Assembly (NCBI RefSeq): GCF_964213995.1
Contig: NW_027590192.1
Location: 124,001 to 188,000, forward strand
Origin: Mustelus asterias
Taxonomy: Eukaryota
Length of the DNA stretch: 64,000 bases
Reading direction: 5' to 3'
Both the position numbers and the translations under genes were made by a program. The notes under the pieces were generated by a model. That model saw nothing but the letters and a program-made list of their open reading frames with translations. It had not been told where the DNA came from and made no database searches. Shown here piece by piece: positions 2,800 to 57,542 of this stretch (positions are counted from its first letter, which is position 1; every line of letters starts with the position of its first letter).

Positions 2800-3850
2800 C
2801 AGAACGAAGAACAAAGACAATTACAGCACAGAAACAAGCCCTTTGGCCCTCCAAGCCTGTAGCAACCATGCTGCCCGTCTGAACTAAAACCCCCTACCTT
2901 TCCAGGGACCATATATCTCTATTCCTATGCTATTCATATCTTTGTCAAGACACACCTTAAAAGTCATTATCGTATCTGCTTCCACTGCCTTCCCCGGCAA
3001 CGAGTTCCAGGCACTCACCACCCTCTGTGTAAAAAACCTGCCTTGTACATCTCCTTTAAACCTTGCCCCTCGCACCTTAAACCTATGCCCCTCGTAATTG
3101 ACTTTTCCACCCCCTGAAAAAGCTTCTGATTATCCACTCTGTCCATGCCCCTCATAATCTTGTAGACTTCTATCAGGTCGCCCCCCTCAACCTCCGTCGT
3201 TCCAGTGAGAACAAACCAAGTTTCTCCAACCTCTCCTCATAGCTAATGCCCTCCACACCAGGCAACATCCTGATAAACATTTTCCACACCCTCTCCAAAG
3301 CCTCCACATCCATCTGGTCGTGTGGTCACCAGAATTGAACATGAGATTCCAAGTGCGGTCTAACTAAGGTTCTATAAAGCTGCAACATGACTGACCAATT
3401 TTTAAACTCAGTGCCCTGGCCGATGAAGGCAAGCATGCCGTATGCCTTCTTGATTATCTTACAATAACCTGTGTACCTGTACACCTCGATCCCTCTGCCT
3501 ATGAATACTCTGAAGGGTTCTGCCATTTACTGTATATTTCCCATCTGTATTAGACCTTCCAAAATGCATTACCTCACATTTGTCCGGATTAAACTTCATC
3601 TGCCATCTCTCCGCCCAAGTCTCCAACTGATCTATATCCTGCTGTATCCTCTGCCGTTCCCCATCGCTATTCGCAATTCCACCAACCTTTGTGTCGTCCA
3701 CAAACTTACCAATCAAACCAGTTACATTTTCCTCCAAATCATTTATATATATTACAAACAGCAAAAGTCCCAGCACTGATCGCTGAGGAACGTCACTTGT
3801 CACAGCCCTCCATTCAGAAATGTACCTTTGCACTGCCAACCTCTGTTTTC
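2800..3850 (-). mobile_element. 5'-truncated CR1 LINE inserted downstream of Z1
   Basis: Minus-strand ORFs 3459-3839 (VPQRSVLG, FVDDTK), 3326-3526 and 2884-3075 (FFTQRVVSAWNSLP); CR1 tail near 2800. Confidence 0.92.
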
Positions 3851-4090
3851 TTCCGACTAAATATCTCTCAACTTCCTAACACCCTGTCACTCTGTGATCC
3901 TCGTGAAATTTGAAACCAGGTATTCGCAAAAAGACTCAAAGAGCATCAGCCCACTGGAGGCTGAGATCAGCCAGTCCAGCACAAAGAAACCCTCTGACCC
4001 TTCCCATTGACCAACTGTGAGAATGAACAAAATGCAGTCCTGGATGCAGCTGAGAGCAGAAACAATAACAGCAGAATCCAACCCCTGGAA

Positions 4091-4765
4091 TCACTTGTGA
4101 ACTTGCTGGTGTTTCAGCAGCCGGGATGAAACGCTGAAACCCTTCCCACACTGAGAGCAGGTGAACGGCCTCTCCCCAGTGTGAACTCGCTGGTGTGCCT
4201 GCAGCTCAGATGGCTGAGTGAATCCCTTCCCACACTGAGAGCAAGTGAACGGCCTCTCCCCAGTGTGAATTCGCTGGTGTGCCCGCAGGGTGGATAACTG
4301 AGTGAATCCCTTCCCACACTGAGAGCAGGTGTATGGCCTCTCCCCAGTGTGAACTCGCTGGTGTGTCTGCAGGCTGGATAATTGAGTGAATCCCTTCCCA
4401 CACTGAGAGCAGGTGAACGGCCTCTCTCCAGTGTGAACTCGCTGGTGTGTCAGCAGGCTGGATGACCGTGTGAATCCCTTCCCACACTGAGAGCAGGTGA
4501 ACGGCCTCTCCCCAGAGTGAACTTGCTGGTGTGACTGCAGGTGGGATGACTGAGTGAATCCCTTCCCACATTGAGAGCAGGTGAATGGTCTCTCCCCAGT
4601 GTGAACTCGTTGGTGAATCCGTAAGCTGGAGAACTGATGAAATCCCTTCTCACACCGAGAGCAGATGAACAGCTTCTCCCCAGTGTGGCTGCGCCGATGA
4701 GCTTCCAGCTCTGATGGGGCTCTGTATCCCTTCCCACAGTCCGCACATTTCCATGGTTTCTCCAT
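4091..4765 (-). CDS. Z1: C2H2 zinc-finger protein, 8 fingers, 224 aa
   Basis: Uninterrupted CxxC...HxxxH units with TGERP linkers; ATG in caccATGG context at 4765; likely exon acceptor ttttccAG at 5117-5118. Confidence 0.88.
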
Positions 4766-5252
4766 GGTGCAGGTGTCCTTACCTCTCTCTTGGGTGGACA
4801 ATCAGTTGAAACTTCGTCCACATACACAACAAGATTACAGTCTCTACCCGCTGTGAATGGTGTGATATTTATTCAGGCTGTGTAACTGGTTAAAGCTCTT
4901 TAGTCAGTGCATTGGAACACTCTCACTCAAGTGTGGCAGTGTGTTGATGCATTTTCACTCACACTGACATTTCAAATCTTTTCAAATTTACAGACTGGAC
5001 AATCATTTCTCCTTCTGGATTCAAAGTCCGATGATATTGAAGTCCCAAGGAATATGATTCTGTCGCGTCTAGACGTGACGTTTGAGATTTCAGCCTGTGA
5101 TTCCTCTTTCAATATCCTGGAAAATTCGTTCACAAAAGTCATCAGTGTCAGTACAGGATAGAAATTCAGAACAGACAATTTCTATGGAACATTCTTTCCT
5201 CTCTCATTCCCCAAAAGCTGGAAATCTCCATCCCACACACTCTCTCCCCATT

Positions 5253-5440: not shown

Positions 5441-6455
5441 AGGCTGCAGATACCTCCTCCCAAGTAACATGCGTGTGCCCAAGACATCACCACTTGTTTC
5501 CCTTATTTCTTTAGCACCCATGGTGCTCTCCGCAGTAAACACAGAGAAGTATTCATTACAAATCTCACCCATCTCCTGTGGCTCCACACACAGATGGCCA
5601 TACTGATTTTTAAGGGGATCTATTCTCTCTCGAGCCACCCTTTTACTCTTAATATAGCAAAAGAACCTCTTGGAATTTTCTTTAATCTTACCTGCCAGAT
5701 CCATATCATACCCTCTTTTTGTCCTCCTGATTTCCCTCTTCAGTATTTTCTTACACTTTTTATAGTCGGAGTGATTCACTTGTCCCCGATTGCCTAAACC
5801 CAATGTATGCTTCCTTCTTTTACCTGACCAGAGCCTCAATGTCCCTTGTCTGCCAGAGATCCCTAAATTTGCCATTCTTTCCCTTCATCTTAACAGGAAT
5901 ATACTGCCCCTGGATTCTTGATATCACACTTTTAAAACCTCCCATTTGCCAGTCATTCCTTTCCTTTCAAACAAACTCACCGAATCGACATCTGCTCGAT
6001 CCTGCCTCATGCCCACAAAAGTGGCCCTGCTCCAGTTTAGGGCCTTGACCTGTGGACCTGTCCTATCTGTTTCCAGAACTATTTTAAAACTATTGGTGCT
6101 CCCAATAGTGCTCCCAATACTGACACTTCAGTCACTTGCTCCACCTCATTTCTTCACTGTCTAATAGAAAGTGAGTCCAGGAATTGATGATGGAAAATGA
6201 GGAGCTGGGAGATGAATTGAACAAGTATTTTGCCTCGGTGTTCACAATAGAGGATACAGTTAAAACTCAGAAACAGCTGGAAATCAGAAAACAGGAGTGT
6301 GGGATGAACTCTGAAAAAGCACAATTCCCAGGGAAGTGGTCCTCAGCAAACTGTTGGAGCTGTGGGCTGGTGAGTCCCCGGGTCCTGCTGGGCTCCATTC
6401 CCGGGTCTGAACAGAGGGAGATAGTTGATGTTGTTCAATTTTCTAAACCGTCTGT
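5440..6455. mobile_element. Old CR1 fragments (minus strand ~5440-6160, plus strand ~6165-6455)
   Basis: ORF 5354-5875 has KIKENSKRFFCYIKSKR and EMGEICNEYFS; the start of ORF 6184 has DELNKYFASVFT. Confidence 0.75.
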
Positions 6456-8564: not shown

Positions 8565-8900
8565 ATGGACAAACCGTGGAAATGTGAGGATTGTGATAAA
8601 GGATTCAATTATCCATACTTGCTGGAAAACCATAGACACAGTCACACTGGAGAGAGGCCATTCATCTGTTCTGTGTGTGGGAAAGGATTCACTATCTCAT
8701 CCCACCTGCTGTTACACCAGCAAATTCACACTGAGGAGAGGCCGTTCAGCTGCTCCACCTGTGGAAAGGGGTTCTCATGTTCATCCAACCTCACTGCACA
8801 TCAGCGAGTTCACACTGGGGAGAGATCGTTCACCTGCTCCTTGTGTGGGAAGGATTTTGCTGGGCCATCCAGTCTTTGGTGACAACGGTGAATTCACAAA
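8565..8900 (+). pseudogene. Z2: truncated C2H2 ZNF pseudogene (3 intact fingers plus 1 broken)
   Basis: MDKPWKC start; stops in finger 4 at 8880 and 8889; array ends where a CR1 begins at ~8903. Confidence 0.85.
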
Positions 8901-8902
8901 GG

Positions 8903-9870
8903 ATATATATAATAGATATAAATGATTCGGAGGAAAATGTAACTGGATTGATTTGTACGTTTGCGGACGACACAAAGTTTGGTGGATTTGCGGATCGCGA
9001 TAAGGACCATCAGAGGATACAGCAGGATATAGACCAGTTGGAGACTTGGGTGGAGAGATGGCAGATGGAGTTTAATCTGGACACATGTGAGGTAATGCAT
9101 TTTGGAAGGTCTAATACAGATAGGAAATATATAGTAAATGGCAGAACCCTTAACAATATTGATAGGCAAAGGGATCTGGGTGTACATAGACACAGATCAC
9201 TGAAAGTGGCAATGCAGGTGGAGAAGGTCATCAAGAAGGCATACTGCATGCTTTCCTTCATCGGCTGAGTTTAAAAATTGGCAAGTCATGTTGCAGCTTT
9301 ATAGAACCTTAGTTAGGCCGTACTTGGAATATAGTGTTCAATTCTGGTCGCCACACTACCAGAAGGATGTGGAGGCTTTGGAGAGGGTCCAGAAAAGATT
9401 TACCAGGATGTTGCCTGGTATAGAGGGCATAAGCTATGAGGAGAGGTTGGAGAAACTTGGTTTGTTCTCACTTGAGCGACGGAGGTTGAGGGGAGACCTG
9501 ATCGAAGTCTACAAGATTATGAGAGGCATGGACAGAGTGGATAGTCAGAAGCTTTTTCCTAGGGTGGAAGAGTCAATTACGAGGGGGAATAGGTTTAAGG
9601 TGCGAGGGGTAAAGTTTAAAAGAGATGTACGAGGCAGATGTTTTCCACAGAGAGTGTTGGGTGCCTGGAATTCATTGCCGGGGGAGGTAGTGGAAAGAGA
9701 TACGGTATTGACTTTTAAGGGGTGTCTTGACAAGTACATGAATGAGATGGGAAGAGAAGGATATGGTCCCCAGAAGGGTCGTGGGTTTTAGTTAAGTCAG
9801 GCAGTATGGTCGGTGCAGGCTTGGAGGGCCGAAGGGCCTGTTCCTGTGCTGTAATTTTCTTTGTTCTGAG
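8903..9870 (+). mobile_element. 5'-truncated CR1 LINE
   Basis: FADDTK, QFWSPHYQKD and RLRGDLIEVYK in ORFs 8777-9268 and 9288-9791; CR1 tail. Confidence 0.94.
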
Positions 9871-11405: not shown

Positions 11406-12396
11406 GGCCAACATCTGTGGGTAAAACACTTTCTTTTCTCCCCCTTTCCATTTCTTTTCTCATTCTGGGGAAAATTGGGGACTTGCAGCAACTGAAGGGA
11501 AATGAAGTGAATCCAGTCGGTATTTTCCACACATTGTTAGTCCAGTCAGATAGACATATATCTGTCTGGCAGCCTGCATGGAGATTTCCAGCTCTCTCTG
11601 TCCAGGACAGGAAGCAGTGAGCATGGATCTATCAATCAGCACCTACAGGAGAATTGGGAGGGTGAATATTAGATACAGCAGAGTGAGAATCGAGGGAGAG
11701 TGTGTGGGATGGAGATTTACAGCTCTTGCGTTGTAATATGATGCTGTAGCGATGTTATACATTTCCAGTCATAAAGTCATTACAGCACAGAAGGAATCCA
11801 TTCGGTAACTCGAGTCCATGCTGACTCTCTGTATAACATTCCAGTCCCATTACCACTCAATATCCCATTCTCCTGTAAGTTTATTTCCTTCAAGTGCCCA
11901 TCCACTTTCATTTTTAAATAGAATCCATAGATATGGATGGAGATTTACAGCTTTTTGGGACTGGGAGATGAAAGAATCTTCCATAGAAACTAGAATTGTC
12001 TGTTCTGAATTTCTATCCTGTACTGACACTGATGACTTTTGTAAACTCATTTTACAGGATATTTAAAGAGGAATCACAGACTGAAAACTCAAACGTCACG
12101 TCTCGATCTGACAGAGTCATACTCCTTGGGAGCTGAATATCATCGGACTTTGAATCCAGAAGGAGAAATGATTGTCCGGTCTGTCGATTTGAAATGTCAG
12201 TGTGACTGGAAAAGCATCAACACACTGTCACACTCGAGTGAGTGTGTTCCAATGCACTGACTAAAGAGCTTTAACCAGTTACACAGTCTGAATAAATATC
12301 ACACCATTCACAGCGGGGAGAGACTGTACCTGTGTTGTGTGTGGACGAGGCTTCAACTGATTGGCCACCCAAGAGAGAGGCAAGGACACCTGCACC

Positions 12397-13236
<840 letters not shown>

Positions 13237-14709: not shown

Positions 14710-17700
14710 GCTTTGGCTCACAGGGCTTCGGCGAAGGCGAGGAAGGTTGTTTGTTTTTCTTCTGTTACACCCCCTTTTTTGTTTTATCTCCCAAAAACTA
14801 AAAAGGACATGGCTGGTATGAGTGGGAGGCCAGTATACTGCATTCGGTGTGGGATGTGGGAGTTCCTGGAGACAACTTGCCTCCCGGAAGTCCATATCTG
14901 TGCCAGATGCGTGGAACTGCAACTCCTGAAGGATCGTGTAAGGGAGCTGGAGCTGAGGCTCGATGAACTCAGTTTAGTTAGGGCAAATGAGAGATTAATA
15001 GATAAAAGTTATAGTCAGGTAGTGACACCAGGGTCTCGGAAGGAAGACACGTGGGTCACAGTTAGGAGGGGTAATAGAAGGGTGATGTGCCAGAAAGTAC
15101 CCCAGTGGCAGTCTCCCATAAAAGAAAGGGATGGCAACAGATGGGAGAAGGGAAGGGTGTGAGCAGTCTGTGGAGGGATCCCCTGTGGTTGTCCCCCTCC
15201 AAAATAGGTATATTGTTTTGGATTCTGTGGAGGGGGATGACCCTCCAGGGGTAAGCCACGAGGACCAGATCGCCTCCACGGAGACAGGCTCAAGGGAGGG
15301 AAGGAAGCGATTTAGGAGAGCGATAGTTGTGGGGGACGCAATGGTTAGAGGCACGGACAGGCGGTTCTGTGGGAGTGAACGAGAATCCAGGATGGTAGTC
15401 TGCCTCCCTGGTGCCGGGGTACTGGATGTCTCCGAGAGGGTAGGAAGCATATTTTAAAAGGAAGGTAGTCAAACGGATGTGATTATACACATTGGTGAAA
15501 ATGATGTCGGTAGGAAGAGCAGGGGGGTCATACGAGAGAAATTCAGGGAGTTGGGTGCTAGGCTAAAAAGTAAGGCCTCCAGGGTAGCAATCTCTGAACT
15601 GCTCCCGGTGTCTAGTGCAAGTGAGGCTCGGAACAGGGAGATTGTACAGTTGAACGCGTGGCTAAAGGACTGGTGCAAGAGGGAGGGTTTTTAATTCATA
15701 GATAACTGGGAAATCTTCAAGTCAGGATGGCAACTGTACAGAAAGGATGGGTTACACCTTAACTGGAAGGGAGCAAATATCCTGGCTGGGAGTTTTGCGA
15801 GAGTGTTTCGGCAGGATTTAAACTAGTGTGGCAGCGGGGTGGGGAACAAAACAGTAGGTTAGTAAATACTGAGGCTGGGGTTGAGCTGGGGGCCAGGGCA
15901 AGGCTAGCTAAGAAGAGGAGCACTCTGGAGGAGGATGACCTGAGTGGGCCTGGAGGTCTGGAGTGCATCTGCTTCAATGCAAGGAGCGTAACGGGTAAAA
16001 CAGACGAACTTAGGGCCTTAATGCTTATGCGGAATTTGGATGTGGTTGCGGTGACGGAAACTTGGTTAAAAGAAGGACAGGACTGGCAGCTGAATATTCC
16101 AGGGTATAAGTGTTTTAGGCGAGACAGAGGAGGGGCTAAAAAAGGTGGGGGAGTAGCGATATTAGTTAAGGAGCATGTTACCGCGGTGCAGAGGGTAGAC
16201 AACTTGGAGGGGTCATGTACTGAGTCGCTGTGGGTGGAACTCAGAAACAGGAAGAGTGCAGTCACTATGCTGGGGGTGTACTACAGACCACCTCTCGGCC
16301 CACGGGAAGTGGAGGAAAGGATATGTCAGGAGATTCTGGATAGGTGCAGAAAAAATAGGGTTGTTGTAGTGGGGGACTTTAATTTCCCTGGCACAGACTG
16401 GAAAGTGCTTAGAGCTGGGGGTCCGGACGGGGAGGAATTTGTAAAATGCGTACTGGAAGGTTCTTTGGAACAGTATGTAGATAGCCCGACTGGAGAGGGG
16501 GCTATACTGGACCTAGTTCTGGGAAATGAGCCAGGTCAGGTTGTCAAAGTTTCGGTAGGGGAACATGTGGCAAATAGTGACCACAACTCTGTTAACTTTA
16601 GGATAGTAATGGACAAGGATGAGTGCTGTCCTACGGGCAGGGTGCTAAATTGGGGGAAGGCTAACTATAGCCGGATTAGGCAGGAATTGGTGGATGTTGA
16701 TTGGGAGAGGATGTTCAAGGGTAAGTCCGCGTCTGGCATGTGGGAGTCTTTTAAGGAACTATTGATAAGACTGCAGGATAGGCATATGCCTGTAAAAAGG
16801 AAAGATAGGAAAGGTAGGATTCGAGAGCCGTGGACAACCAGGGAAATTGAGGATCTGATTAAAATGAAAAGGGAGGCGTACGTTAAGTCCAGGCAACTGA
16901 AAACAGATGGAGCTCTGGAGGAATACAGAGAGAGTAGGAAAGAACTCAAACGGGGAGTTAGAAGGGCAAAAAGAGGTCACGAGATGTTCTTGGCAGGCAT
17001 GATTAAGGAGAATCCTAAGGCATTCTATTCATACGTTAGGAACAAAAGAGTTGTCAGGGAGAAAATCGGACCTCTCAGGGACAAAGGAGGGGAATTATGC
17101 TTAGAACCCAAGGGAATAGGGGAGATCCTAAATGAATACTTTGCATCGGTATTCACGAAGGAAAGGGGCGTGTTAACCGGGAGTGTCTCAGAGGGAGGTG
17201 TTGACCCGTTAGAGAAAATCTCCATTACAAGAGAGGAAGTGTTAGGTTTTTTAGGGAACATTAAAACTGACAAAGCCCCAGGGCCTGATGGCATCTATCC
17301 TCGACTGCTCAGGGAGACGAGAGATGAAATTGCTGGGCCTCTGACGGAAATCTTTGTCGCTTCTTTGGACACGGGTGAGGTCCCTGAGGATTGGAGGATA
17401 GTGAATGTGGTCCCGTTGTTTAAGAAGGGTAGCAGGGATAACCCAGGAAATTATAGGCCGGTGAGCTTGACGTCCGTGGTAGGGAAGTTGTTGGAGAGGA
17501 TTCTTAGAGACAGGATGTATGTGGATTTAGAACGGAACAATCTCATTAGTGACAGACAGCATGGTTTTGTAAGAGGGAGGTCGTGCCTTACAAATTTGGT
17601 GGAATTTTTTGAGGAAGTGACAAAAACGGTTGATGAAGGAAGGGCCGTGGATGTCGTCTATATGGATTTCAGGAAGGCATTTGACAAAGTCCCACATGGC

Positions 17701-18822
17701 AGGTTGGTTAAGAAGGTTAAGGCTCATGGGATACAAGGAGAAGTGGCTAGATGGGTGGAGAACTGGCTTGGCCATAGGAGACAGAGGGTAGTGGTCGAAG
17801 GGTCTTTTTCCGGCTGGAGGTCTGTGACCAGTGGTGTTCCACAGGGCTCTGTACTGGGACCTCTGCTATTTGTGATATATATAAATGATTTGGAAGAAGG
17901 TGTAACTGGTGTAATCAGCAAGTTTGCGGATGACACGAAGATGGCTGGACTTGCGGATAGCGAAGAGCATTGTCGGGCAATACAGCAGGATATAGATAGG
18001 CTGGAAAATTGGGCGGACAGGTGGCAGATGGAGTTTAATCCGGATAAATGCGAAGTGATGCATTTTGGAAGAAATAATGTAGGGAGGAGTTATACAATAA
18101 ATGGCAGAGTCATCAGGAGTATAGAAACACAGAGGGACCTAGGTGTGCAAGTCCACAAATCCTTGAAGGTGGCAACACAGGTGGAGAAGGTGGTGAAGAA
18201 GGCATATGGTATGCTTGCCTTTATAGGACGAGGTATAGAGTATAAAAGCTGGAGTCTGATGATGCAGCTGTATAGAACGCTGGTTAGGCCACATTTGGAG
18301 TACTGCGTCCAGTTCTGGTCGCCGCACTACCAGAAGGACGTGGAGGCGTTAGAGAGAGTGCAGAGAAGGTTTACCAGGATATTGCCTGGTATGGAGGGTC
18401 TTAGCTATGAGGAGAGATTGGGTAAACTGGGGTTGTTCTCCCTTGAAAGACGTAGAATGAGGGGAGATCTAATAGAGGTGTACAAGATTATGAAGGGGAT
18501 AGATAGGGTGAATGGTGGGAAGCTTTTTCCCAGATCAGAAGTGACGTTCACGAGGGGTCACGGGCTCAAGGTGAGAGGGGCGAAGTATAACTCAGATATT
18601 AGTGGGATGTTTTTTACACAGAGGGTGGTGGGGGCCTGGAATGCTCTGCCAAGTAGGGTGGTGGAGGCAGGCACACTGACATCGTTTAAGACTTACCTGG
18701 ATAGTCACATGAGCAGCCTGGGAATGGAGGGATACAAACGATTGGTCTTGTTGGACCAAGGAGTGGCACAGGCTTGGAGGGCCGAAGGGCCTGTTTCCTG
18801 TGCTGTACTGTTCTTTGTTCTT
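14710..18822 (+). mobile_element. Full-length young CR1 LINE
   Basis: 5'UTR, ORF1, ORF2 and (ttctttg)n tail; candidate target-site duplication tgtgagg at 14703-14709 and 18823-18829. Confidence 0.96.
14809..15826 (+). pseudogene. CR1 ORF1 (Cys-pair zinc knuckle, coiled coil, SGNH/GDSL esterase), disrupted
   Basis: CIRC..CARC, LELRLDEL, then VGDAMVRG, CLPGA, HIGENDV and DGLHLN; broken into several ORFs at ~15160, ~15455 and ~15692. Confidence 0.88.
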
Positions 18823-18840
18823 TGTGAGGTCTTTGTATGA
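15826..18840 (+). CDS. CR1 ORF2: APE endonuclease plus reverse transcriptase, open for 1004 codons
   Basis: CFNARS, VTETWL, GGGVA, YRPP, GDFN, SDH, GVPQGSVLGP, FADD; no ATG before the endonuclease; native TAG reads TTG at ~18748. Confidence 0.95.
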   Translation: MWQRGGEQNSRLVNTEAGVELGARARLAKKRSTLEEDDLSGPGGLECICFNARSVTGKTDELRALMLMRNLDVVAVTETWLKEGQDWQLNIPGYKCFRRDRGGAKKGGGVAILVKEHVTAVQRVDNLEGSCTESLWVELRNRKSAVTMLGVYYRPPLGPREVEERICQEILDRCRKNRVVVVGDFNFPGTDWKVLRAGGPDGEEFVKCVLEGSLEQYVDSPTGEGAILDLVLGNEPGQVVKVSVGEHVANSDHNSVNFRIVMDKDECCPTGRVLNWGKANYSRIRQELVDVDWERMFKGKSASGMWESFKELLIRLQDRHMPVKRKDRKGRIREPWTTREIEDLIKMKREAYVKSRQLKTDGALEEYRESRKELKRGVRRAKRGHEMFLAGMIKENPKAFYSYVRNKRVVREKIGPLRDKGGELCLEPKGIGEILNEYFASVFTKERGVLTGSVSEGGVDPLEKISITREEVLGFLGNIKTDKAPGPDGIYPRLLRETRDEIAGPLTEIFVASLDTGEVPEDWRIVNVVPLFKKGSRDNPGNYRPVSLTSVVGKLLERILRDRMYVDLERNNLISDRQHGFVRGRSCLTNLVEFFEEVTKTVDEGRAVDVVYMDFRKAFDKVPHGRLVKKVKAHGIQGEVARWVENWLGHRRQRVVVEGSFSGWRSVTSGVPQGSVLGPLLFVIYINDLEEGVTGVISKFADDTKMAGLADSEEHCRAIQQDIDRLENWADRWQMEFNPDKCEVMHFGRNNVGRSYTINGRVIRSIETQRDLGVQVHKSLKVATQVEKVVKKAYGMLAFIGRGIEYKSWSLMMQLYRTLVRPHLEYCVQFWSPHYQKDVEALERVQRRFTRILPGMEGLSYEERLGKLGLFSLERRRMRGDLIEVYKIMKGIDRVNGGKLFPRSEVTFTRGHGLKVRGAKYNSDISGMFFTQRVVGAWNALPSRVVEAGTLTSFKTYLDSHMSSLGMEGYKRLVLLDQGVAQAWRAEGPVSCAVLFFVLCEVFV

Positions 18841-23006: not shown

Positions 23007-24188
23007 CCAGGACAGGAAGCAGTGAGCATGGATCTGTCAATCAGCCTGAATAGTATATATATTATATATTTCCAGTTATTCATCTCTTGCTTATTAGAAT
23101 CATTAGTCTTTGGATTTTTCTTCCACAGGGATCAGTGGAAGCTGAGGGTTATTGAAGATATTCGAGGATGAGTTAGATGGATATTACATTGATAAAGGAG
23201 TCAAGCGTCATGGAGAACAAGTGGGAAAATGGAGTGAAAGTTAAGATGAGGAGGGATTTCCTCACTCAAGGATGTGGTGTAGTTTTTGAATTCTGCGCTC
23301 CAGAGGACTGTGGAGCCTCAGTCATCAAATATTTTCAAGAGAGAGATTGGTAACTTTTGAGGCATTGAGCAACATGGGGGATAGAACATAGAAAAGCTAC
23401 AGCACAAACAGGCCCTTTGGCTCACAAGTTGCGCCGAACATGTCCCTACCTACGAGGCTTACCTATAACCCTCTATCTTACTAACTTCCATGATAGTTTG
23501 GGAAATAGTGGCGCTATGGAAATAGTGTGAGGTCGATCAGCCAATTCTCAATGAATGGTTGAGGCAGTTCAATGGGCTGAATGGCCAACTGCAGCTCCTG
23601 TTTCTTATGATTTATGTGTGGTGGACAGGAAGCAGTGAGCATGGATCTGTCAATCAGCCTCAATCAGCACCTTCAGGAGAATTGGGAGGGTGAATATTAG
23701 ATACAGCAGAGTGAGAATGGAGGGAGAGTGTGTGGGGTGGAGATTCACAGCTTTGGGGAATGAGAAAGGAAAGAATGTTCCATAGAAACTAGAATTGTCT
23801 GTTCTGAATTTCTACTTCTATTTCTAACTCATTTTACAGGATATTGAAAGAAGAATCACAGGCGGAAATCTCAAACGTCACGTCGAGATCTGACAGTCAT
23901 ATTCCTTGGGAGCTGAATATCATCGTCCTTTGAATCTAGAGGGAGAAATGATTGTCCAGTCTGTTGATTTGAAAAAAAATTCAAACTTCAGTGTGACTGG
24001 AAAAGCAGCAACACACTGCCACACTCGAGTGAGTGTGTCCAATGCACTGACTAAAGAGCTTTAACTAGTTACACAGCCTGAATAAATATCACACCATTCA
24101 CAGTGAGGAAAGACTGTACCAGTGTCCTGTGTGTGGACAAGGCTTCAACTCATTGTCCACCCAAGAGAGAGGTAAGGACACCTGTACC

Positions 24189-25241
24189 ATGGAAAAACCA
24201 TGGAAATGTGCGGATTGTGGGAAGAGATACAGAGTCCCATCAGAGCTGGAAGCTCATCGGCGCAGTCACACTGGGGAGAGGCCGTTCACCTGCTCTCAGT
24301 GTGGGAAGGGATTCGCTCTGTTAGCCACCTTGCAGAAACACCAGCGAGTTCACACTGGGGAGAGGCCATTCACCTGCTCTCATTGTGGGAAGGGATTCAG
24401 TCAGTTTTCCAACCTGCGGACACACCAGCGAGTTCACACTGGGGAGAGGCCGTTCACCTGCTCTCAGTGTGGGGATGGATTCAGAGCTTCATCCAGCCTG
24501 TGGACACACCAGCGAGTTCACACTGCGGAGAGGCCGTTCACCTGCTCTCAGTGTGGGAAGGGATTCACTCTGTCATCCAGCCTGCTGATACACCAGCGAG
24601 TTCACACGGGGGAGAGGCCATTCACCTGCTCTCAGTGTGGGAAGGAATTCACTCGGTCATCCAGCCTGCGGAGACACCAGCGAGTTCACACCAGGGAGAG
24701 GGCCTTCACCTGCTCTCAGTGTGGGGATGGATTCAGAGCTTCATCCAGCCTGCGGACACACCAGCGAGTTCACACTGGGGAGAGACCGTTCACCTGCTCT
24801 CAGTGTGGGAAGGAATTCACTCGGTCATCCAGCCTGCGGACACACCAGCACGTTCACACTGGGGAGAGACCGTTCACCTGCTCTCAGTGTGGGAAGGGAT
24901 TCAGAGCTTCATCGAGCCTGCTGACACACCAGCGAGTTCACACTGGGGAGAGACCGTTCACCTGCTCTCAGTGTGGAAAGGGATTCATTCGGTCATCCAG
25001 CTTGTGGAAGCACCGGCAAGTTCACACTGGGGAGAGGCCGTTCACCTGCTCTCAGTGTGGGAAGGGATTCACTCAGTCATCCCACCTGTGGAGGCACCAG
25101 CGACTTCACACTGGGGAGAGGCCGTTCACCTGCTCTCAGTGTGGGACGGGATTCAGAGCTTCATCTAGCCTGTGGACACACCAGCAAGTTCACATTGGGG
25201 AGAAGCCATTCACCTGCTCTGTGTGGGAAGCGGTTCAGTGA
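24189..25241 (+). CDS. Z4: C2H2 ZNF, 12 intact fingers; a 2-nt deletion near 25221 removes two more (relic to 25365)
   Basis: MEKPWKC at 24189; acceptor at 23838-23839; the shifted frame continues ...[20 protein letters not shown]...HQRVHE. Confidence 0.87.
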
Positions 25242-26591: not shown

Positions 26592-27822
26592 GAGTCATAG
26601 AGGTTTACAGCATGGAAATAGGCCCATCAGCCCAACTTGTCCATGCTGCCCTTTTTTTTAAACCCCTTAGCTAATCCCAATTGCCTGCATTTGGCCCATA
26701 TCCCTCTCTACCCATCTTATCCATGTAACTATCTAAAAGCTTTTTAAAAGACAAAATTGTACCCGCCTCTACTACTATCTCTGGCAGCTTGTTCCAGACA
26801 CTCACCGCCCTCTGTGTGAAAAAATTACCCCTTTCGACACTTTTGTATCTCTCCCCTCTCACCTTAAACCTATGCCTTCTAGTTTTAGACTCCCCTACTT
26901 TTGGGAAAAGATATTGACTATCTACCTTATCTATGCCCCTCATTATTTTATAGACCTCTATAAGGTCACCCCTCAGCCTCCTGCGCTCCAGAGAAAAAAG
27001 TCTCAGTCTATCCAGCCTCTCCTTATAACTCAAACCATCCAGTCCCAGTTGCATCCTAGTAAATCTTTTCTGCACTATTTCTAGTTTAATAATACCCTTT
27101 CTATAATAGGATGACCAGAACTGCACACACTATTCCAAGTGTGGCCTTACCAATGTCTTGTACAACTTCAACAAGACATCACAACTCCTGTATTCAATGT
27201 TCTGACCGATGAAACCAAGCATGCCGAATGCCTTCTTCAGCATTCTGTCCACCTGTGACTCCACTTTCAAGGAGCTATGAACATGTACCCATCGATCTCT
27301 TTGTTCTGTTACTCCCCAACGCCCTACCATTAACTGAGTAAGTCCTGCCCTAGCTCAATCTACCAAAATGCATCACCTCGCGTTTGTCTCAATTAAACTC
27401 CATCTGCCATTCGTCAGCCCACTGGCACAATTGATCAAGATCCCGTTGCAATCGGAGATAACTTTCTTCACTATCCACTATGCCACCAATCTTGGTGTCA
27501 TCTGCAAACCTACTAACCGTGCCTCCTATATTCTCATCCAAATCATTAATATAAATAACAGTGGACCCAGTACTGATCCCTGAGGCACACTGCTGGTCAC
27601 AGACCTCCAGTTTGAAAAACAACCCTCTACAACCACCCTCTAGAAGCCAATTTTGTATCCATTTAGATACCTCACCCTGGATTCCGTGAGATTTTAACCT
27701 TATGCAACAACCTACCATGCGGTACTTCGTCAGAGATCTTGCTAAAGTTCATGTTGACAACATCAACTGCACTGCCCTCATCTATCTTCTTAGTTACCCC
27801 TTCAAAAAACTCAATCAAATTT
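26592..27822 (-). mobile_element. 5'-truncated CR1 LINE
   Basis: Minus-strand ORFs 27389-27718 (FADDTK), 27130-27330 and 26671-27126; same subfamily as 54480-55932. Confidence 0.93.
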
Positions 27823-28459
27823 GACCACAGCTCAGTTTCTGCAATCATGAACCATTAAAGCTGCTTAGCAGTGCCCTGACAGAGGACCTGGTGAGAATAT
27901 TTCCTCATTGAGTTAGAATTAAACTTATTCCAGGACTGGCTGGTGTTCAGTGGCTGAGATACCCGAATCTGTGAAAAGGGGGTCTGACCAATCAACAAAC
28001 AGTGGTAGGTAGTTGATTAAGAAGTTAAGAAGCGTTCTCAGGCATTGTTTAAATTATTTTATCATAAATTTGTGATGTGAACTGTGAGGGACTATGACCC
28101 GATAGTCACTGAAGTGACGGTATACTCCAAGTAGCACTGGACTGAAAAGCGAGAGTAGATTCTAATGAATGGTTATAATCCTACCCTAGCATGGCCAGTG
28201 AAAAATCAGAGCTCGAGTGATCAAGAATAATAATGTGATAAGGTGCGAAGGAATAAGATCTCCCCGTGTAAAAATCAAGTTGGGATGACATTTGTATCAC
28301 ATAGGAGTCAATGAATGGAATACATTGGGTATTGCACATCCCCTAGCCTGGCCTGATTGAACACATGAATGGGCTATTGAAACAATAAATCAAGCTTGAC
28401 CACACACTCAAAGAGTGGCAAAGGCCTTACATAATTTGAATAATAGGCCACAAAAAGGA

Positions 28460-32869: not shown

Positions 32870-33802
32870 TCACTTGTGAACCCGCTGGTGTCTCAGCAGG
32901 TGGGATGACTGAGTGAATCCCTTCCCACACACGGAGCAGGTGAATGGCTTCTCCCCAGTGTGAACTCGCTGGTGTGTCAGCAGGTTCGATGACCGATTGA
33001 ATCTCTTCCCACACACAGAGCAGGTAAATGGCTTCTCCCCAGTGTGAACCCGCTGGTGTGTCAGCAGGGTAGATAACTCACAGAATCCCTTCTCACATTC
33101 TGAGCAGGTGAAAGGCCTCTCCCTGTCCCCGCTGTGAATTTGTTGGTGTCTTAGCAGGTTGGCTAACTGAGTGAATCCCTTCCCACAGTTGGAGCAGGTG
33201 AACGGTCTCTCCCCAGTGTGAACTCGCTGGTGTGTCAGCAGGGTGGAGGAATCTCCGAATCCTTTCCCACACACGGAGCAGATGAATGGCCTCTCCCCGG
33301 TGTGAACTCGCTGATGTGCCAGCAGGTCAGATGAATCTCTAAATCCTTTTCCACACTCTGAGCAGGCGAATGGTCTCTCCCCAGTGTGAACTCGATGGTG
33401 CCTCTGCAGACTGGATGACCGAGTGAACCTCTTCCCACAGTCAGAGCAGATGAATTGCCTCTCCTTGGTGTGAACTTGCTGGTGTACCAGCAGGGTGGAT
33501 GAATCTCTGCATCTTTTCCCACACACTGAGCAGCTGAATGGTCTCATCCCTGTGTGAACTCGATGATGTCTCACTAGGTTGGATGAAATGCTGAATTTCT
33601 TCCCACACACAGAGCAGGTGAATGGCCTCTCTCCGGTATGAACTCGCTGGTGTGTAAGCAGGTCGGATGCATTAGTAAATCTCTTCCCACACTGAGAGCA
33701 GGTGAATGGTCTTTCCCCGGTGTGACTGCGTCGATGAATTTCCAACTCAGATGGGGACTTGAATCCCTTTCCACAATCCTTACATTTCCACGGTTTCCCC
33801 AT
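32870..33802 (-). CDS. Z5: C2H2 ZNF, 11 fingers, 310 aa, intact
   Basis: MGKPWKC from ATG at 33802; acceptor tttacAG at 33954-33955; one lengthened linker (HSGDRERP). Confidence 0.9.
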
Positions 33803-34639
33803 GGTGTCGGTGTCTGTGTCTCGGTGCTTTTCCAGTCACAGGAATGGTAGAATGGGCGATGGTTTGCCTCATCCTATTAAATCGAGTGACTCTGTCAGAT
33901 CTTGGTGTGAAGTTTGGTTTGAGATTTCTTAAAGGATATTCCCTTTTAATATCCTGTAAAAGAAGTTTGCAAATGTCATCACTGTCAGTACAGCTCAGAA
34001 ATTCAGAACAGACAACCAGTCACTGATGGGATACATTCTGCCACATGGAGAATTATGGATTGTAACATTGTCATTAAAACATGTGATACCAAAGCCACAG
34101 CAATGTGGTTGAATCTTAAGTGTCCACCAAGGGCAACTAGAGATGGGCAAGAAATGCTGGCAACCAGCGACATCCATGTCCCACAAATGAATACAAAAGT
34201 GATTGAGTGTAAATAATTTACATTTAAAAATGTCTTTTGTCAACGGTGTAAATGCTCATTTATAAATTTATATATGTATATCTATATATATATATTTACA
34301 TATTTATAAATGCTCATTTTGTCATTGATTTCCTGAAGCTCCTGTTTTGAGTTTCAGACAGTTCTATGCCAAGCGTTTGAGGTGATTAAAAGTCTTTCAT
34401 CTTACTCTTTGCATATCGATATTCACTAAAGCTACACAGATTGATTTTCTTCTCATTATAAATATATTTTCAATACTTAAAAGGACAGTCTTTCAGCAAC
34501 CCCCATTTTCCTTCTTTCTGGTTGATAATTAAGGGTCTGTACACTTGGCGTAATTTATGATTTTGTTCCTAATTTTATCGGTTTCCCCACCCGCCACAAT
34601 TTCCACAACACAGCAAAAATAATCACTATTCACTAATTG

Positions 34640-37479: not shown

Positions 37480-38760
37480 TCAATTATAGCATGTGTGTTG
37501 ATGTCTACCTGTCATGTGTCAAATTTTTCCGCACAGTCATAGGTGTATCAGGAGTATAGTAGGGGGCTGAGAACACAGCCTTGTGGGGCACTAATGTTGA
37601 GGATGATCATGGAGTAGGTGTTGTTGCCTATCCTTGCTGATTGTGGTCTATGAATTAGGAAGTTCAGGATCCAGTCAGAGAAGGAGGTGCCAAGGCCCAG
37701 GCCATGGAGTTTGGAGAGGAGTTTCTTGGGAATAATAGTGTTGAAGGCTGAGCTGTAGTCAATAAATAGGAGTCTGACATAGGTGTCCTTGTTATCTAGG
37801 TGTCCCGGGATTGAGTGTAGGGCCAGGGAAATGGCATCTGCTGTGGACCTGTTGCGGTGGTAGGCAAACTGTAGTGGATCCAGGTAGTCCGGGAGGCTGG
37901 AATTGATTCGTGCCATGACTAACCTTTCGAAGCACTTCATAATGATGGATGTCAGAGCCACCGGCCGATAGTCATTAAGGCACGCTGCTTGATTTTTCTT
38001 AGGTACCGGGATGATGGTCATCTTCTTGAAGCAGATAGGGCCCTCAGATTGTTGTAAAGAGAGGTTGAAGATGTCTGTGAATACCTCTGCCAGCTAATCC
38101 ATGCAGGATCTGAGTGCATTTTCGGGTACCCCACCTGGGTCAGTTGCTTTCCGTGGGTTGACCTTCAAGAAAGCTGCTCTGACATCTGAAGTGGTGACCC
38201 CCAGATACAGGTTCATCCAGGGCTTCCAGGGTGGAGGGCATGCTCTCGCTGACCACTTTCTCAAAACGGACGTAGAATGCATTGATCTCATCAGGGAGGG
38301 GTGCGTTGGAGCCGGCAATTTTACATGCCTTCATCTTGTAGCCTGTTATGTCTTGCAGACCTTGCCATAATTGGGGTCGGTGTGGCTAGCCTGGGACTCT
38401 AACTTGGTCTGGTATTGTCTTTTCGCATCTTTGATGGATCTCCTTCGATCGTATCTGGCTATCTGGCTTTCTTGTGTAGGTCAATGTCCACCTTCCACCT
38501 TCTTCTGTCGGGAAAAAGATATAAAATCTTGAAGTCACATACCAACCAACTCAAGAACAGCTTCTTCTCTGCTGCCATCAGACTTTTGAATGGACTTACC
38601 TCGCACTAAATTGATCTTTCTCTACACCCTAGCTATGACTGTAACACTACATTCTGCACTATCTCCTTTCCTTCTGCATGAATGTTATGCTTTGTCTGTA
38701 TAGCGCGCAAGAAACAATACTTTTCAGTGTATATATTTGACAATAAATCCAATCAAATCA
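37480..38760. mobile_element. Rex1/Babar-type LINE fragment with inversion (RT part minus, 3' tail plus)
   Basis: Minus ORF 37548-38021 has [35 protein letters not shown]; plus-strand tail 38485-38760. Confidence 0.85.
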
Positions 38761-42687: not shown

Positions 42688-43039
42688 CTGCAGGGGTTGG
42701 ACTCTGCTGGTATTGCTGCTGTTCAGTATTGATAGTCTGACAATATTTTATTTCTGCTGATAACAAATCCCATAACTAGCTGGAATTTAATATTCTGGAA
42801 GTGTCACTGATTTTCAGGGCTGCAATGTCACTTTTTAAAAGCACCACCAGTGATCTTCCCCCTCAATTGAAGAACTCTCAACAGGAACCTGTTTGGAATA
42901 AAATTATGAACTTTTGCTTCAATTTCACAGCATATTCAAATGTGAGGATTTGCAGTTGGAAAACTGAAACCAAACATCACATCAGGATCAGACAGAGTCG
43001 CCCAGTTTATCGTAATATGCGTATCATTGGATTTTGAAC

Positions 43040-43849
43040 ATGGAAAGAAAAAGCACCGCTCACAGTGGGGAGAAACTGTACACGTGTTCCGTGTGTGGAC
43101 GAGGATTCAGCCGTTTATCTGGCCTGTCAAAACATAAATGCAGTCACGGTGGGGAGAAATTGTGGAAATGTGAGTATTGTGGCAAGGGATTCAGTTCCCC
43201 ATCAGAGCTGGAAATTCATCGACGGTGTCACACTGGGGAGAGACCGTTCACCTGCTCCGAGTGTGGGAAAGGATTCACTCAGTTGTCCCACCTGGTGAGA
43301 CACCAGCGAATTCACACTGGGGAGAGACCATTCACCTGCTCTGTGTGCAAGGTGGGATTCACTCAGTCAACCCACCTGGTGTCACACCAGCGAGTCCACA
43401 CGGGAGAGAGACCATTCACCTGTTTTGTGTGCAAAATGGGATTCACTCAGTCAACCCACCTGGTGACACACCAGCGAGTTCACACTGGGGAGAGACCATT
43501 CACCTGCTCAGAGTGTGGGAAGAAATTCAGTCGGTCGTTTCACCTTCTGATTCACCAGCGAATTCACTCTGGAGAGAGACCATTCACCTGCTCTGAGTGT
43601 GAGAAGGCATTCATTACATCAACAGAACTGTTGACACACCAGCGGATTCACACTGAGGATAACTCGTTCACCTGCTCCAAATGTGGGAAGGAATTCGCTA
43701 ACTCTTCTAACCTGATCTGCCATCAACGGATTCACACTGACGAGAGACCTTTTAAATGCCCAGACCGTGGAAAGTGCTTTAAAAGTTTTGGGAACTTGAC
43801 CCATCAACGGGTTCACACTCGAGTTCAGATGCTTTCACTGTGGGACTGA
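43040..43849 (+). CDS. Z7: C2H2 ZNF, 8 intact fingers, decayed tail (relics to ~43970)
   Basis: ATG at 43040 ([12 protein letters not shown]); acceptor tttcacAG at 42929-42930; finger 9 lacks its second Cys. Confidence 0.78.
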
Positions 43850-44057: not shown

Positions 44058-44291
44058 TAGTATTCTGAGTTTTTAAAAAAAAATCAACTTTGCTTTAATT
44101 TTTGAATGACTGCATCTTCATTTGGGAGGCTGGGATTATCCCCGTTTCGAGGGAACTAAGGAATAGACCATAAGCCGTAGGAGCAGCATTCGGCCATTCA
44201 GCCTTCATTATAACAATGATCCCATTGTGATTTCTGCTGGTTGGGAAATGTGCGATATTAACGCCAGTCTGTCTTTCTTTAATTCCCTTCA

Positions 44292-46455
44292 AAGAACAAA
44301 GAACAGTACAGCACAGGAAACAGGCCCTTCGGCCCTCCAAGCCTGTGCCGCTCCTTGGTCCAACTAGACCAATCGTTTGTATCCCTCCATTCCCAGGCTG
44401 CTCATGTGACGATCCAGGTAAGTCTTAAAAGATGTCAGCGTGCCTGCCTCCACCACCCTACTTGGCAGCGCATTCCAGGCCCCCACCACCCTCTGTGTAA
44501 AAAACGTCCCTCTGATGTCTGAGTTATACTTCGCCCCTCTCAGCTTGAGCCCGTGACCCCTCGTGATCGTCACCTCCGACCTGGGAAAAAGCTTCCCACT
44601 GTTCACCCTATCTATACCCTTCATAATCTTGTATACCTCTATTAGATCTCCCCTCATTCTCCGTCTTTCCAAGGAGAACAACCCCAGTCTACCCAATCTC
44701 TCCTCATAGCTAAGACCCTCCATACCAGGCAACATCCTGGTAAACCTTCTCTGCACTCTCTCCAATGCCTCCACGTCCTTCTGGTAGTGCGGCGACCAGA
44801 ACTGGACGCAGTACTCCAAATGTGGCCTCACCAGCGTTCTATACAGCTGCATCATCAGACTCCAGCTTTTATACTCTATACCCCGTCCTATAAAGGCAAG
44901 CATACCATATGCCTTCTTCACCACCTTCTCCACCTGTGTTGCCACCTTCAAGGATTTGTGGACTTGCACACCTAGGTCCCTCTGTGTTTCTATACTCCTG
45001 ATGACTCTGCCATTTATTGTATAACTCCTCCCTACATTATTTCTTCCAAAATGCATCACTTCGCATTTATCCGGATTAAACTCCATCTGCCACCTCTCCG
45101 CCCAATTTTCCAGCCTATCTATATCCTGCTGTATTGCCCGACAATGCTCTTCGCTATCCGCAATTCCAGCCATCTTCGTGTCATCCGCAAACTTGCTGAT
45201 TACACCAGTTACACCTTCTTCCAAATCATTTATATATATCACAAATAGCAGAGATCCCAGTACAGAGCCCTGCGGAACACCACTGGTCACAGACCTCCAG
45301 CTGGAAAAAGACCCTTCGACCACTACCCTCTGTCTCCTATGGCCAAGCCAGTTCTCCACCCATCTAGCCACTTCTCCTTGTATCCCATGAGCCTTAACCT
45401 TCTTAACCAACCTGCCATGTGGGACTTTGTCAAATGCCTTACTGAAATCCATATAGACGACATCCACGGCCCTTCCTTCATCAACCGTTTTTGTCACTTC
45501 CTCAAAAAACTCCACCAAATTTGTAAGGCACGACCTCCCTCTTACAAAACCATGCTGTCTGTCACTAATGAGATTGTTTCGTTCTAAATGCACATACATC
45601 CTGTCTCTAAGAATCCTCTCCAACAACTTCCCTACCACGGACGTCAAGCTCACCGGCCTATAATTTCCTGGGTTATCCCTGCTACCCTTCTTAAACAACG
45701 GGACCACATTCGCTATCCTCCAATCCTCAGGGACCTCACCCGTGTCCAAAGAAGCGACAAAGATTTCCGTCAGAGGCCCAGCAATTTCATCTCTCGTCTC
45801 CCTGAGCAGTCGAGGATAGATGCCATCAGGCCCTGGGGCTTTGTCAGTTTAAATGTTCCCTAAAAAACCTAACACTTCCTCTCTTGTAATGGAGATTTTC
45901 TCTAACGGGTCAACACCTCCCTCCGAGACACTCCCGGTTAACACGCCCCTCTCCTTCGTGAATACCGATGCAAAGTATTCATTTAGGATCTCCCCTATTC
46001 CCTTGGGTTCTAAGCATAATTCCCCTCCTTTGTCCCTGAGAGGTCCGATTTTCTCCCTGACAACTCTTTTGTTCCTAATGTATGCATAGAATGCCTTAGG
46101 ATTCTCCTTAATCCTGCCTGCCAAGAACATCTCGTGACCTCTTTTTGCCCTTCTAACTCCCCGTTTGAGATCTTTCCTACTCTCTCTGTATTCCTCCAGA
46201 GCTCCATCTGTTTTCAGTTGCCTGGACTTAATGTACGCCTTCCTTTTCATTTTAATCAGATCCTCAATTTCCCTGGTTATCCACAGCTCTCGAATCCTAC
46301 CTTTCCTATCTTTCCTTTTTACAGGCACATGCCTATCCTGCAGCCTTATCAATAGTTCCTTAAAAGACTCCCACATGCCAGACGCGGACTTACCCTCGAA
46401 CATCCTCTCCCAATCAACATCCACCAATTCCTGCCTAATCCGGCTATAGTCAGCC
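44292..46455 (-). mobile_element. 5'-truncated CR1, near-identical to 16665-18822
   Basis: ORFs 45849-46490 and 44364-45749 share a frame, split by AAA>TAA at 45849-45851. Confidence 0.96.
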
Positions 46456-48464: not shown

Positions 48465-49255
48465 GTTAGTCATAGTCATACAGTGCAGAAAACACCCTTC
48501 GACCCATAGAGTCTGCACCAACAATAGCTACCACTAAGCCCCATGCTAATCCCATTTTCCAGCACTTGTCCCATATCCTTATCTGAATGCTACAATATTT
48601 CAAGTGCTCATCCAAATACTTTTTAACGGTTGTTAAGTTTCCAGCCTCCACTACCTTCCCAGGCAGTTTATTACAGATTCCCACCACCCTCTGATTTTTT
48701 TTTTCTCAACTCTCCTCTGAATCTCTTGCCAGGTACCCTAAAACTATGTCCCCTCATGATTGACCCCTCAACCAAGGGTTCTACTCACCCGGTCCATATC
48801 CTTCATAATCTTATTCACCACAGTCATGTCCCCCTCAGCCTTCTCTGCTCTCAACACTCCAAACCTATCCAGTCTCCTTATAGCTCAAATGTTCCATCCC
48901 AGGCAACATCCTGGTGAATCTCCTCTGTACCCCCTCCAGTGCAATTACATCCTTCCTGGAGTGAGGTGACCAGAACTGCACACGGTACTCCAGCTGTGGC
49001 CTAACCAACATTCTGTACAGCTCCAACATTATCTCCTTGTTCTTATACTGTATGCCACGACTGATAAAAGCAAGTGTCTCTTATGCCTTGTTATCTATTC
49101 TATTCAGCAGCTCTGCTACCTTAAGTGAATAAGTACCCCAAGATCCATCTGCTTCTCTGATTTTACCTCGTGTCCTTCCATTCATTAATTATTTATTTAT
49201 CTTGTTACTTCTTCCAAACTGCATCACTTCACACTTATCAAGGTTAAATACCATA
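48465..49255 (-). mobile_element. Old CR1 3' fragment
   Basis: NKLPGKVVEAG..KKYLDEHL, and a QFWSPH-type segment on the minus strand. Confidence 0.8.
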
Positions 49256-49669
49256 TTTTTAAAATTAATTTGTGGGACATGGGTGTTGCTCGCTGGCCAT
49301 CCCTCGTTGCCCTTGAGAAGGTGGTGGTGAGCTACCTTCTTGAATCGCTGCAGTCCATGTGCTGTGGGTTTACCTACAATGCATTTCGGGAGGGAATTCC
49401 AGGATTTTGACCCAGCGACTGTGAAGGAATGGTGATATATTTTGAAGTCTACCAGTGTTCTGCCCATCTGACCAACCCAACTATATCTTGCTGCAACCTA
49501 CGCCAGTGTGGGGTGGACTCTAAAAGGACCCTGGGTCTCTGGAATACTCGTCCAGTAACAATTCCACCATGCACATTGGCAGATGTATCAATTGGTTTAA
49601 TAATTTTATATATTAACCCTGTAGTTCTGACCGTAATTGGATGACAAAATACAATTTTGTGTTGAAATT

Positions 49670-49960: not shown

Positions 49961-50603
49961 CGGGGAGGTGGTGGTAAAATCAGTGACACAGCCTAATGTT
50001 GTGGGGATGGGTTCAAGTCCCATCATGGAGCTGGGGGAGATTTAAATAGAATTCATAAAACGCTGGAAAATCTGGAATATAATTTCACTTGAGTAACCAT
50101 TACAGCTGTGAACAATTTTAAAAACCCATCCTGTTTATTCATGGGAATCTGCTGTCTCTCCATAGACTTGTCAACATGCGATTCAGCCTCTAACTGCCCT
50201 CCTCAGGGGCAGGAAATAAATGCTGGTCTTGGCAATAAAACCACATCACATGAAACAGTGAAGGAGAAACACTGATGGACTTGGGTTAATGGCTGTCATC
50301 TTTCTCGGGGGCAGGACACAGGCACGGCTATCACTGTCCCTGTGACAAAATGTGAATTTCTATCCTGGACTGACACTGATAGATTTTGGAGTCTCCTTTT
50401 CCAGAGGGTGAGAAGGGGAGGATTTACACACAGTAAACTCAAACCAAGAGAAATATTTGCTTCAATTTTTAACTTTGGACTTTTTTTTAAACAGGATATT
50501 AGAAGTGCAGGAGTGGAAGGGAGAAAACTCAAACCAAACATCGCATCAGGATCTGACGCTATCGCCTAAATTATTGTAATCTGAATATCATTGGGTTTTG
50601 AAC

Positions 50604-57325: not shown

Positions 57326-57542
57326 CAGCCACGTAATTCTTTGTAAACTTATTTTGCAGGAAATAGAAGAGGAGGATTTGCAGTCTGGACAAACAAATCT
57401 CACGTCAGACAGAGTCAATCAATTCATTGGGATTTGAAGATTTGTGCATCTGAAGGGATTTAATTGACCATCTCAGTTGGAAACTGGTGAGAATCTGTTT
57501 CCTTGCTCCTCCTGTGGGGAGGGATTGATACAGCTGGAAAAC

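Follow-up and report, generated by a model that had tools for sequence, protein, structure and literature searches.

A conserved ORF1-ORF2 junction in CR1 LINEs that is most likely a -1 ribosomal frameshift signal

How ORF2 of LINE retrotransposons is translated has been described as an open question, and the article concerned, in the portion covered here, treats stop-start mechanisms, reinitiation and internal ribosome entry, and not frameshifting (PMC3894237). SART1 and mammalian L1 share with the elements described below a bicistronic RNA and a low level of ORF2 product, and SART1 likewise has its ORF2 shifted by -1 at the stop. In both, however, translation restarts, in SART1 at a UAAUG, and free ORF2p is produced (PMC5972666, PMC3708506), whereas CR1 junctions mostly lack an AUG and carry a slippery heptamer. 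The Dictyostelium elements TRE5-A and TRE3-A are APE-type LINEs that are stated to require a -1 frameshift for ORF2, although they are amoebal, target tRNA genes and carry an ORF1 of unknown function, and no heptamer is given in the parts of the text covered (PMC5911963). For Paramecium LINE groups 1-3, ORF2 expression has been suggested to need recoding, but by a +1 frameshift or reinitiation, or by readthrough, and the portion of that account covered mentions no -1 heptamer (PMC5405496). In viral and LTR-element frameshifting, including U_UUA_AAC of coronaviruses such as IBV and the retroviral gag-pol junctions, an in-phase X_XXY_YYZ heptamer is combined with an enzyme ORF in the -1 frame, and U_UUA_AAC, G_GGA_AAC and A_AAA_AAC have been listed among the heptamers most prone to shift on mammalian ribosomes (PMC5009743).

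In most vertebrates the dominant retrotransposons belong to the CR1 group (PMC13343379), and the canonical CR1 form (PMC13343379; CR1_7, type IVB, PMC4120745) resembles the element described here in its zinc-finger-like and esterase ORF1, its APE and RT ORF2 and its lack of poly(A). The word 'frameshift' is absent from the main texts of both papers and from the searched supplement text of PMC13343379, the supplements of PMC4120745 hold no junction sequences, and 'CR1' does not occur in the portion of PMC5009743 covered. A literature search, its scope excluding early CR1 papers and Repbase notes, yielded no paper linking frameshifting to CR1; an earlier mention somewhere is conceivable, though we would not expect one.

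We analysed a 64,000-nucleotide stretch of DNA from Mustelus asterias, referred to below as the window, in which a near full-length LINE spans positions 14809-18840 of the + strand, with an ORF1 encoding a Cys-rich N-terminus and an SGNH esterase and an ORF2 encoding an APE endonuclease and a reverse transcriptase (RT). Its features are as follows.

14809..15826, +, ORF1, broken in this copy, with a Cys-rich zinc-finger-like N-terminus, a coiled region and an SGNH esterase
15073..15160, +, two frame changes in ORF1, near 15073-15078 and 15134-15160, from tblastn pieces in frames 1, 3 and 2
15455..15457, +, in-frame TAA in ORF1 of this copy
15692..15694, +, in-frame TAA in ORF1, private to this copy, 15692 differing in nearly all of the depth in 4 of 4 runs
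15799..15801, +, stop of the ORF2 frame in family members, a sense codon in this copy, with another base at 15799 in each of the four runs (96-100% of the depth)
15817..15823, +, slippery heptamer T_TTA_AAC in the ORF1 phase, from the sequence and conserved in relatives
15823..15972, +, open linker of 50 codons in the -1 frame without ATG, the other two frames containing 4 and 5 stops
15823..18840, +, ORF2 frame downstream of the junction, uninterrupted, with Exo_endo_phos (E 1e-15) and RVT_1 (E 3e-35) in Pfam
15824..15826, +, ORF1 stop TAG, adjoining the heptamer, its G opening GTG in the ORF2 frame
15829..15844, +, short G-run element, 5-20 nt downstream of the heptamer, candidate stimulator
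16021..16023, +, first ATG of the ORF2 frame, within the endonuclease domain
18809..18826, +, 3' end of short tandem TGTTCTT repeats without poly(A), shared with a second copy

The element combines an esterase-type ORF1, an ORF2 with APE and RT, and a tandem-repeat 3' end without poly(A), all of which are found in CR1, and from the esterase tree, the named homologs and its likeness to named consensuses we regard it as a decayed copy of an esterase-ORF1 CR1 LINE. The nearest named homologs of ORF1 are shark and ray proteins, in keeping with a cartilaginous-fish host, and tblastn aligns ORF1, split over three frame pieces, with the intact homolog P0002 at 84% identity. The ORF1 matches in Pfam, OSK and Lipase_GDSL_2, both lie below cut-off, and the ORF1 family profile matches the LINE ORF1 esterase structure 4c1b (E 4e-50); a PDB search with the endonuclease as a single sequence gave no match. 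A second copy of the family at 44290-46455 (-), 5'-truncated and without the junction, is 97.6% identical, and the LINE family is young.

At the junction the ORF1 frame reads GAT TTA AAC TAG and the -1 frame TTT AAA CTA GTG TGG CAG. A first-pass annotation of this DNA had placed T_TTA_AAC in phase directly before the ORF1 stop, with ORF2 in the -1 frame, and sequence and frames agree with it on both points; the open frame past the junction counts 1005 codons, not the 1004 given. It was also right that the ORF2 frame has no ATG before 16021, already beyond the first endonuclease motif: this ATG is residue 87 of the stop-to-stop frame, and the Pfam endonuclease match starts 16 codons earlier, at residue 71. 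The Asn of the NARS motif, which precedes the ATG, aligns with the Asn of 'ITILTLN' in the first endonuclease strand of L1 ORF2p. That Asn is essential in L1. A start at 16021 would, on this alignment, remove the first endonuclease strand, and the homologs P0054 and P0055 have no Met at the equivalent position. Neither an overlap of the SART1 type (UAAUG or AUGA, the window having UAGUG instead) nor an L1-type AUG ahead of the endonuclease domain is found in the window element. By a chance estimate, an XXXYYYZ heptamer precedes 20 of the 5412 stop triplets in the window (0.4%); TTTAAAC occurs 14 times against 6.8 expected, and since it is thus common as a word, its weight rests on position and conservation.

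The claim that this LINE itself makes the fusion fails for the present copy because its ORF1, with two frame changes and two stops, is broken, a point that the first-pass annotation had overlooked, and a ribosome starting at 14809 therefore halts at 15160-62 and never reaches the heptamer in frame. Since this copy is dead, the frameshift claim concerns the family and needs testing there. Contigs from four runs were aligned to 15640-16060 (1501, 1347, 26 and 14 records), the other ORF1 breaks lying outside this stretch, and among the variant rows listed (40 of 50) there are rows at 15811, 15812 and 15816 and none at 15817-15826. The family base at 15799 is silent in ORF1 and closes the ORF2 frame by a stop lying 16 nt before the heptamer, so that ORF1 and ORF2 overlap only over 15802-15826. 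In the ORF2 frame of this family overlap no ATG, CTG, GTG, TTG or ACG precedes the heptamer, and with the frame closed at 15799-15801 ORF2 has to be entered between there and the endonuclease. An ATG upstream of the endonuclease, which had been named as evidence against frameshifting, was sought and is absent from the window family; the second ORF2-frame ATG, at 16027, is not family-wide in the four runs, and no variant row for 16021 appears among the 40 of 50 listed. The linker has 13 substitution sites in the family, none of them a stop in the ORF2 frame, a number too small to show selection.

For other vertebrates, the first 400 nt of each consensus in the supplement of PMC13343379 were used and junctions were judged by eye; TTTAAACTA matched 23 times, 17 at an ORF1 end and 6 elsewhere. 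The latter comprise four L2 or Rex1 rows, which are not CR1, and two dogfish 5' UTRs, and one further consensus reads TTTAAACTGA at the ORF1 end, which gives 18 in total. Within the 400 nt covered, these 18 CR1-group consensuses, from 12 vertebrate species codes, end ORF1 in the heptamer, and the stop (TAG, TAA or TGA) and the following bases vary. We take the species codes to denote alligator, crocodile, bearded dragon, bullfrog, coelacanth, bowfin, halosaur, elephant shark, catshark, dogfish, stingray and sawfish. By eye, the window junction resembles those of the shark and ray consensuses. Controls were run because the search itself had asked for the heptamer. Synonymous spellings of the heptamer ending were counted at 53 places in the same partial consensuses, and none of the 38 viewed lay at an esterase end. 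A search anchored on the upstream GLH codons gave 12 matches. In six the match is the esterase motif of a CR1 row, and each of these ends in the heptamer; they are the same consensus rows already counted and not new data. In the -1 frame, the stop is overlapped by AUG in 3 of the 18 consensuses, always as UAAUG, by GUG in one and by another codon in 14. The sequence TTTAAACTA(A/G) is also present in the 5' UTR of the dogfish consensuses SquAca_CR1-18 and SquAca_CR1-3 (PMC13343379 supplement, as covered).

Protein sequences offer a separate view of the same site. Forty-two of 52 ORF1 homologs end in Leu-Asn (LN); after a profile search had added 150 rows, with a profile that was built from LN-ending proteins and may favour LN, a final LN or Gly-Asn (GN) was found in 110 of 195 proteins, LN being the commonest ending (91 of 144). 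A heptamer of the form X_XXA_AAC demands that the residue before Leu-Asn has a codon ending in T and the residue before Gly-Asn a codon ending in G. After dereplication at 70%, the residues whose codons cannot end in T (E/Q/K/M/W) are found at position -3 in 0 of 42 LN enders, against a background of 19% (P 1e-4); this position takes 12 values, and the same residues are found at -4 and -5 in 16 and 15 of the 42. With dereplication at 60% and 50%, the counts at -3 are 1 of 30 (P 0.013) and 0 of 18 (P 0.011), respectively. GN enders have Q at -3 in 8 of 9 cases and S in the ninth, all from one clade, so that Fisher values overstate independence. Among 155 distinct tails, from an input that held 13 redundant cluster members and omitted at least 40 proteins that lack the motif or have very long tails, 112 end in a tripeptide that fits X_XXA_AAY, 10 carry one internally and 33 have none (background 0.7%). 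In the esterase tree of 76 rows, GN, KN, EN and LN endings alternate inside a single 18-member clade (support 100/96), and another esterase clade has x-K-N at a fixed internal place that, from protein only, fits A_AAA_AAY. This switching at -3 is the pattern that tandem tRNA slippage would predict, and not one predicted by a protein need or a reinitiation signal; the three heptamers seen or inferred here all belong to the four that PMC5009743 names as the most prone to shift.

In P0157, P0167, P0187, P0188 and P0202 x-K-N lies at the same offset after DGLHL and ORF1 runs on for about 10-12 codons, an arrangement that would fit an A_AAA_AAY site upstream of the stop. The gene models P0109 and P0218 run into the ORF2 frame and have F-K-L at the junction, which is the -1 reading of TTT AAA CT; natural single-ORF fusions of ORF1 and ORF2 were sought among 8000 scored candidates, which yielded one weak case, the stork gene model P0218. 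Two shark-type CR1 proteins, P0010 and P0054, are filed under Pseudomonas aeruginosa and Carnobacterium and are probably host DNA in bacterial assemblies.

More distant relatives were found at the DNA level in 39 metagenome loci, 4 of which have a heptamer junction with ORF2 behind it and 5 an in-frame TGA junction, the remaining 30 being bacterial-type esterases, other elements or unresolved. T_TTA_AAC TAA is followed by ORF2 in the -1 frame in L004, L010 and L003, and L002 has G_GGA_AAC TAG with ORF2 in the same phase. The ORF2 products of these four are about 40% identical or less to that of the window; L010 and L003 are near-identical, which leaves three lineages in all, and ORF1 of L003 has an indel close by. 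After the heptamer the -1 frame is open for more than 928 codons in L002, 945 in L004 and 156 in L010. For the 67-codon linker of L002, open in the -1 frame, the chance by composition is 0.002, and for the other junctions it is 0.09-0.2. The viral contigs searched gave no match; 4 loci were recovered from the genome contigs searched, and neither a heptamer junction nor an evident ORF2 is present in any of them. Conservation of heptamer and phase across CR1 relatives had been proposed as a check, and both are conserved, by eye in the consensuses and by frame in the distant loci. An in-frame Met stands just before the endonuclease motif in L002, L004 and L010, and also in P0218. The proposal that a -1 slip joins ORF1 to an ORF2 without AUG is supported by conservation and covariation as regards the join, but the lack of an AUG, which is true of the window family, is not universal, given the Met in three distant relatives and the UAAUG in three of the 18 consensuses.

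The junction is a real and conserved feature and most likely a -1 frameshift signal of CR1 LINEs, and we consider it probable that -1 frameshifting at T_TTA_AAC would give an ORF1-ORF2 fusion in active members of the family. Most ribosomes would finish ORF1 at Leu-Asn-stop. With TTA in the P site and AAC in the A site, a minority would slip back one base by tandem slippage to TTT AAA, bypass the stop and read CTA GTG TGG through the variable linker into the endonuclease and RT. The slippage and its product, a fusion that would, like Gag-Pol, be of low abundance relative to ORF1p, are what we infer from the phase, the open frame, the conservation and the covariation. CR1 differs from the viral and LTR cases in being a non-LTR element, in the stop that adjoins the heptamer and in that no 3' pseudoknot or stem was found; and, there being no protease domain among the Pfam matches of the element, its fusion would probably stay uncut.

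Coupled termination and reinitiation of the SART1 or L1 type, in which ribosomes would restart at the stop-overlapping codon or at a Met before the endonuclease and release free ORF2p, would make the heptamer a termination or restart signal and not a slip site. The UAAUG at 3 of the 18 consensus junctions, the UAGUG in the window, the Met before the endonuclease motif in L002, L004 and L010 and near-cognate CTG codons in the linker are consistent with it, there is precedent in PMC5972666 and PMC3708506, and an AUG-independent restart in the window element is conceivable. We nevertheless judge reinitiation alone unlikely, since the stop-overlapping codon varies among the consensuses while the heptamer is fixed, since it predicts neither the switch between T_TTA_AAC and G_GGA_AAC nor the rule for the -3 residue, and since reinitiation after a long ORF1 has been argued to be improbable in the portion of PMC3894237 covered. 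It is possible, if rather doubtful, that use is mixed, with frameshifting ancestral and the UAAUG sharks and Met-bearing invertebrate-type elements also, or only, reinitiating, which would be compatible and overlap with frameshifting in the window family. Cases with UAAUG or an upstream Met do coexist with an intact heptamer; yet in an intact -1 frame a TG may follow TAA simply by chance, and these families keep the heptamer, which suggests that it is still needed.

If the esterase simply needed a C-terminal Leu-Asn, the heptamer would be incidental, a result of codon use and shared ancestry, as might be expected from the predominance of LN endings and the common descent of the vertebrate CR1s. 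Such a constraint on the protein is very improbable, however, because Gly or Lys replaces Leu in step with the preceding residue, no synonymous spelling was seen at an esterase end among the 38 places viewed, an L2-type clade keeps the esterase without LN and the 4c1b match stops before the terminal Leu-Asn residues; moreover, ORF2 would still lack an entry route. Removal of the stop by splicing or another event in RNA or DNA, with TAG as acceptor or by transcriptional slippage, has a parallel in the automatic stork gene model P0218, which joins ORF1 and ORF2, and TAG can indeed act as an acceptor. We give this scarcely any credence, as the stop is TAA or TGA in many families, the homopolymer runs are just three bases long, neither an indel row nor a joint that ends at the stop appears in the four runs (40 of 50 variant rows listed), and P0218, in which the end of the esterase is missing, appears to be an artefact of gene modelling.

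Returning to the frameshift reading, a G-quadruplex in the G-tract-rich segment after the junction had been suggested as the stimulator. The segment is G-rich, but the four-run G3 quadruplex motif, (G3+N1-7)x4, is absent from all five junctions over their first 120 nt, folding with G4 enabled selected no quadruplex, and the element is G-skewed throughout; the quadruplex was accordingly rejected. No stem-loop or H-type pseudoknot stood out above shuffled sequence either: folding z values ran from -1.5 to +1.4 at 5 junctions, between 3 and 29 of 30 shuffles equalled the best pseudoknot, and Rfam gave no match at the junction. What recurs, at about the 5-9 nt spacing usual for a stimulator, is the short G-run, whose score is reached by 2 of 74 background blocks in the window, 0 of 68 in L002, 2 of 69 in L004 and 1 of 23 in L010; it ranks in the top 0-4% of ORF2 blocks in these four junctions and is visible in most vertebrate consensuses over the part covered. 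It is a candidate stimulator, which may bind a protein or may simply encode Gly. A long-range pairing partner for it was rejected, the best duplex in the window, near 15391, beating 15 of 15 shuffles only narrowly, and no comparable duplex being found in L002, L004 and L010, where 4, 4 and 8 of 15 shuffles were as good.

If the frameshift reading is true, CR1 ORF2p would exist as a fusion to ORF1, unlike that of L1, and annotations that begin ORF2 at its first Met would be truncated. The nuclear-encoded -1 frameshift sites would gain a large family without obvious RNA structure, which would be useful for finding a new kind of stimulator. A broader proposal, which we put forward tentatively and hold to be somewhat less than an even bet, is that CR1 LINEs from sharks to crocodiles, and invertebrate-type lineages, obtain their RT only as an uncut fusion of the esterase ORF1 with ORF2, by an ancient, pseudoknot-free -1 frameshift driven by the adjacent stop and an unpaired G-run; that sister L2-type elements would reach the fusion by UGA readthrough; and that fusion to ORF1p would be a general way in which esterase LINEs load the enzyme into their particle.

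The five TGA junctions belong to L2-type esterase elements (L001:2406, L005:3661, L006:1134, L007:1322 and L028:1642), in which ORF1 ends in TGA and the frame beyond it is open in phase; the clade has support of 100/100 in the esterase tree. The endonuclease motif lies 82-97 codons past the TGA in L001, L005 and L007, and TGA-C occurs in 3 of the 5 junctions, one of them TGA CTA. These junctions are candidates for stop readthrough, weakened by an in-frame Met before the motif in L001 and L007.

The window as a whole is occupied by a C2H2 zinc-finger gene cluster, which accounts for 8 of the 15 long ORFs scanned, with many LINE fragments among the genes. Tandem C2H2 zinc-finger exons lie on both strands at 4091-4801, 12361-13236, 24069-25241, 32870-33835, 43016-43849, 50580-51641, 57468-58748 and 62600-63397. 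Older CR1-like RT fragments of other subfamilies occur at 101-1848, 2804-3872, 5480-6124, 8885-9867, 26698-27824, 37527-38204, 48583-49257, 54460-55827 and 63500-63916.
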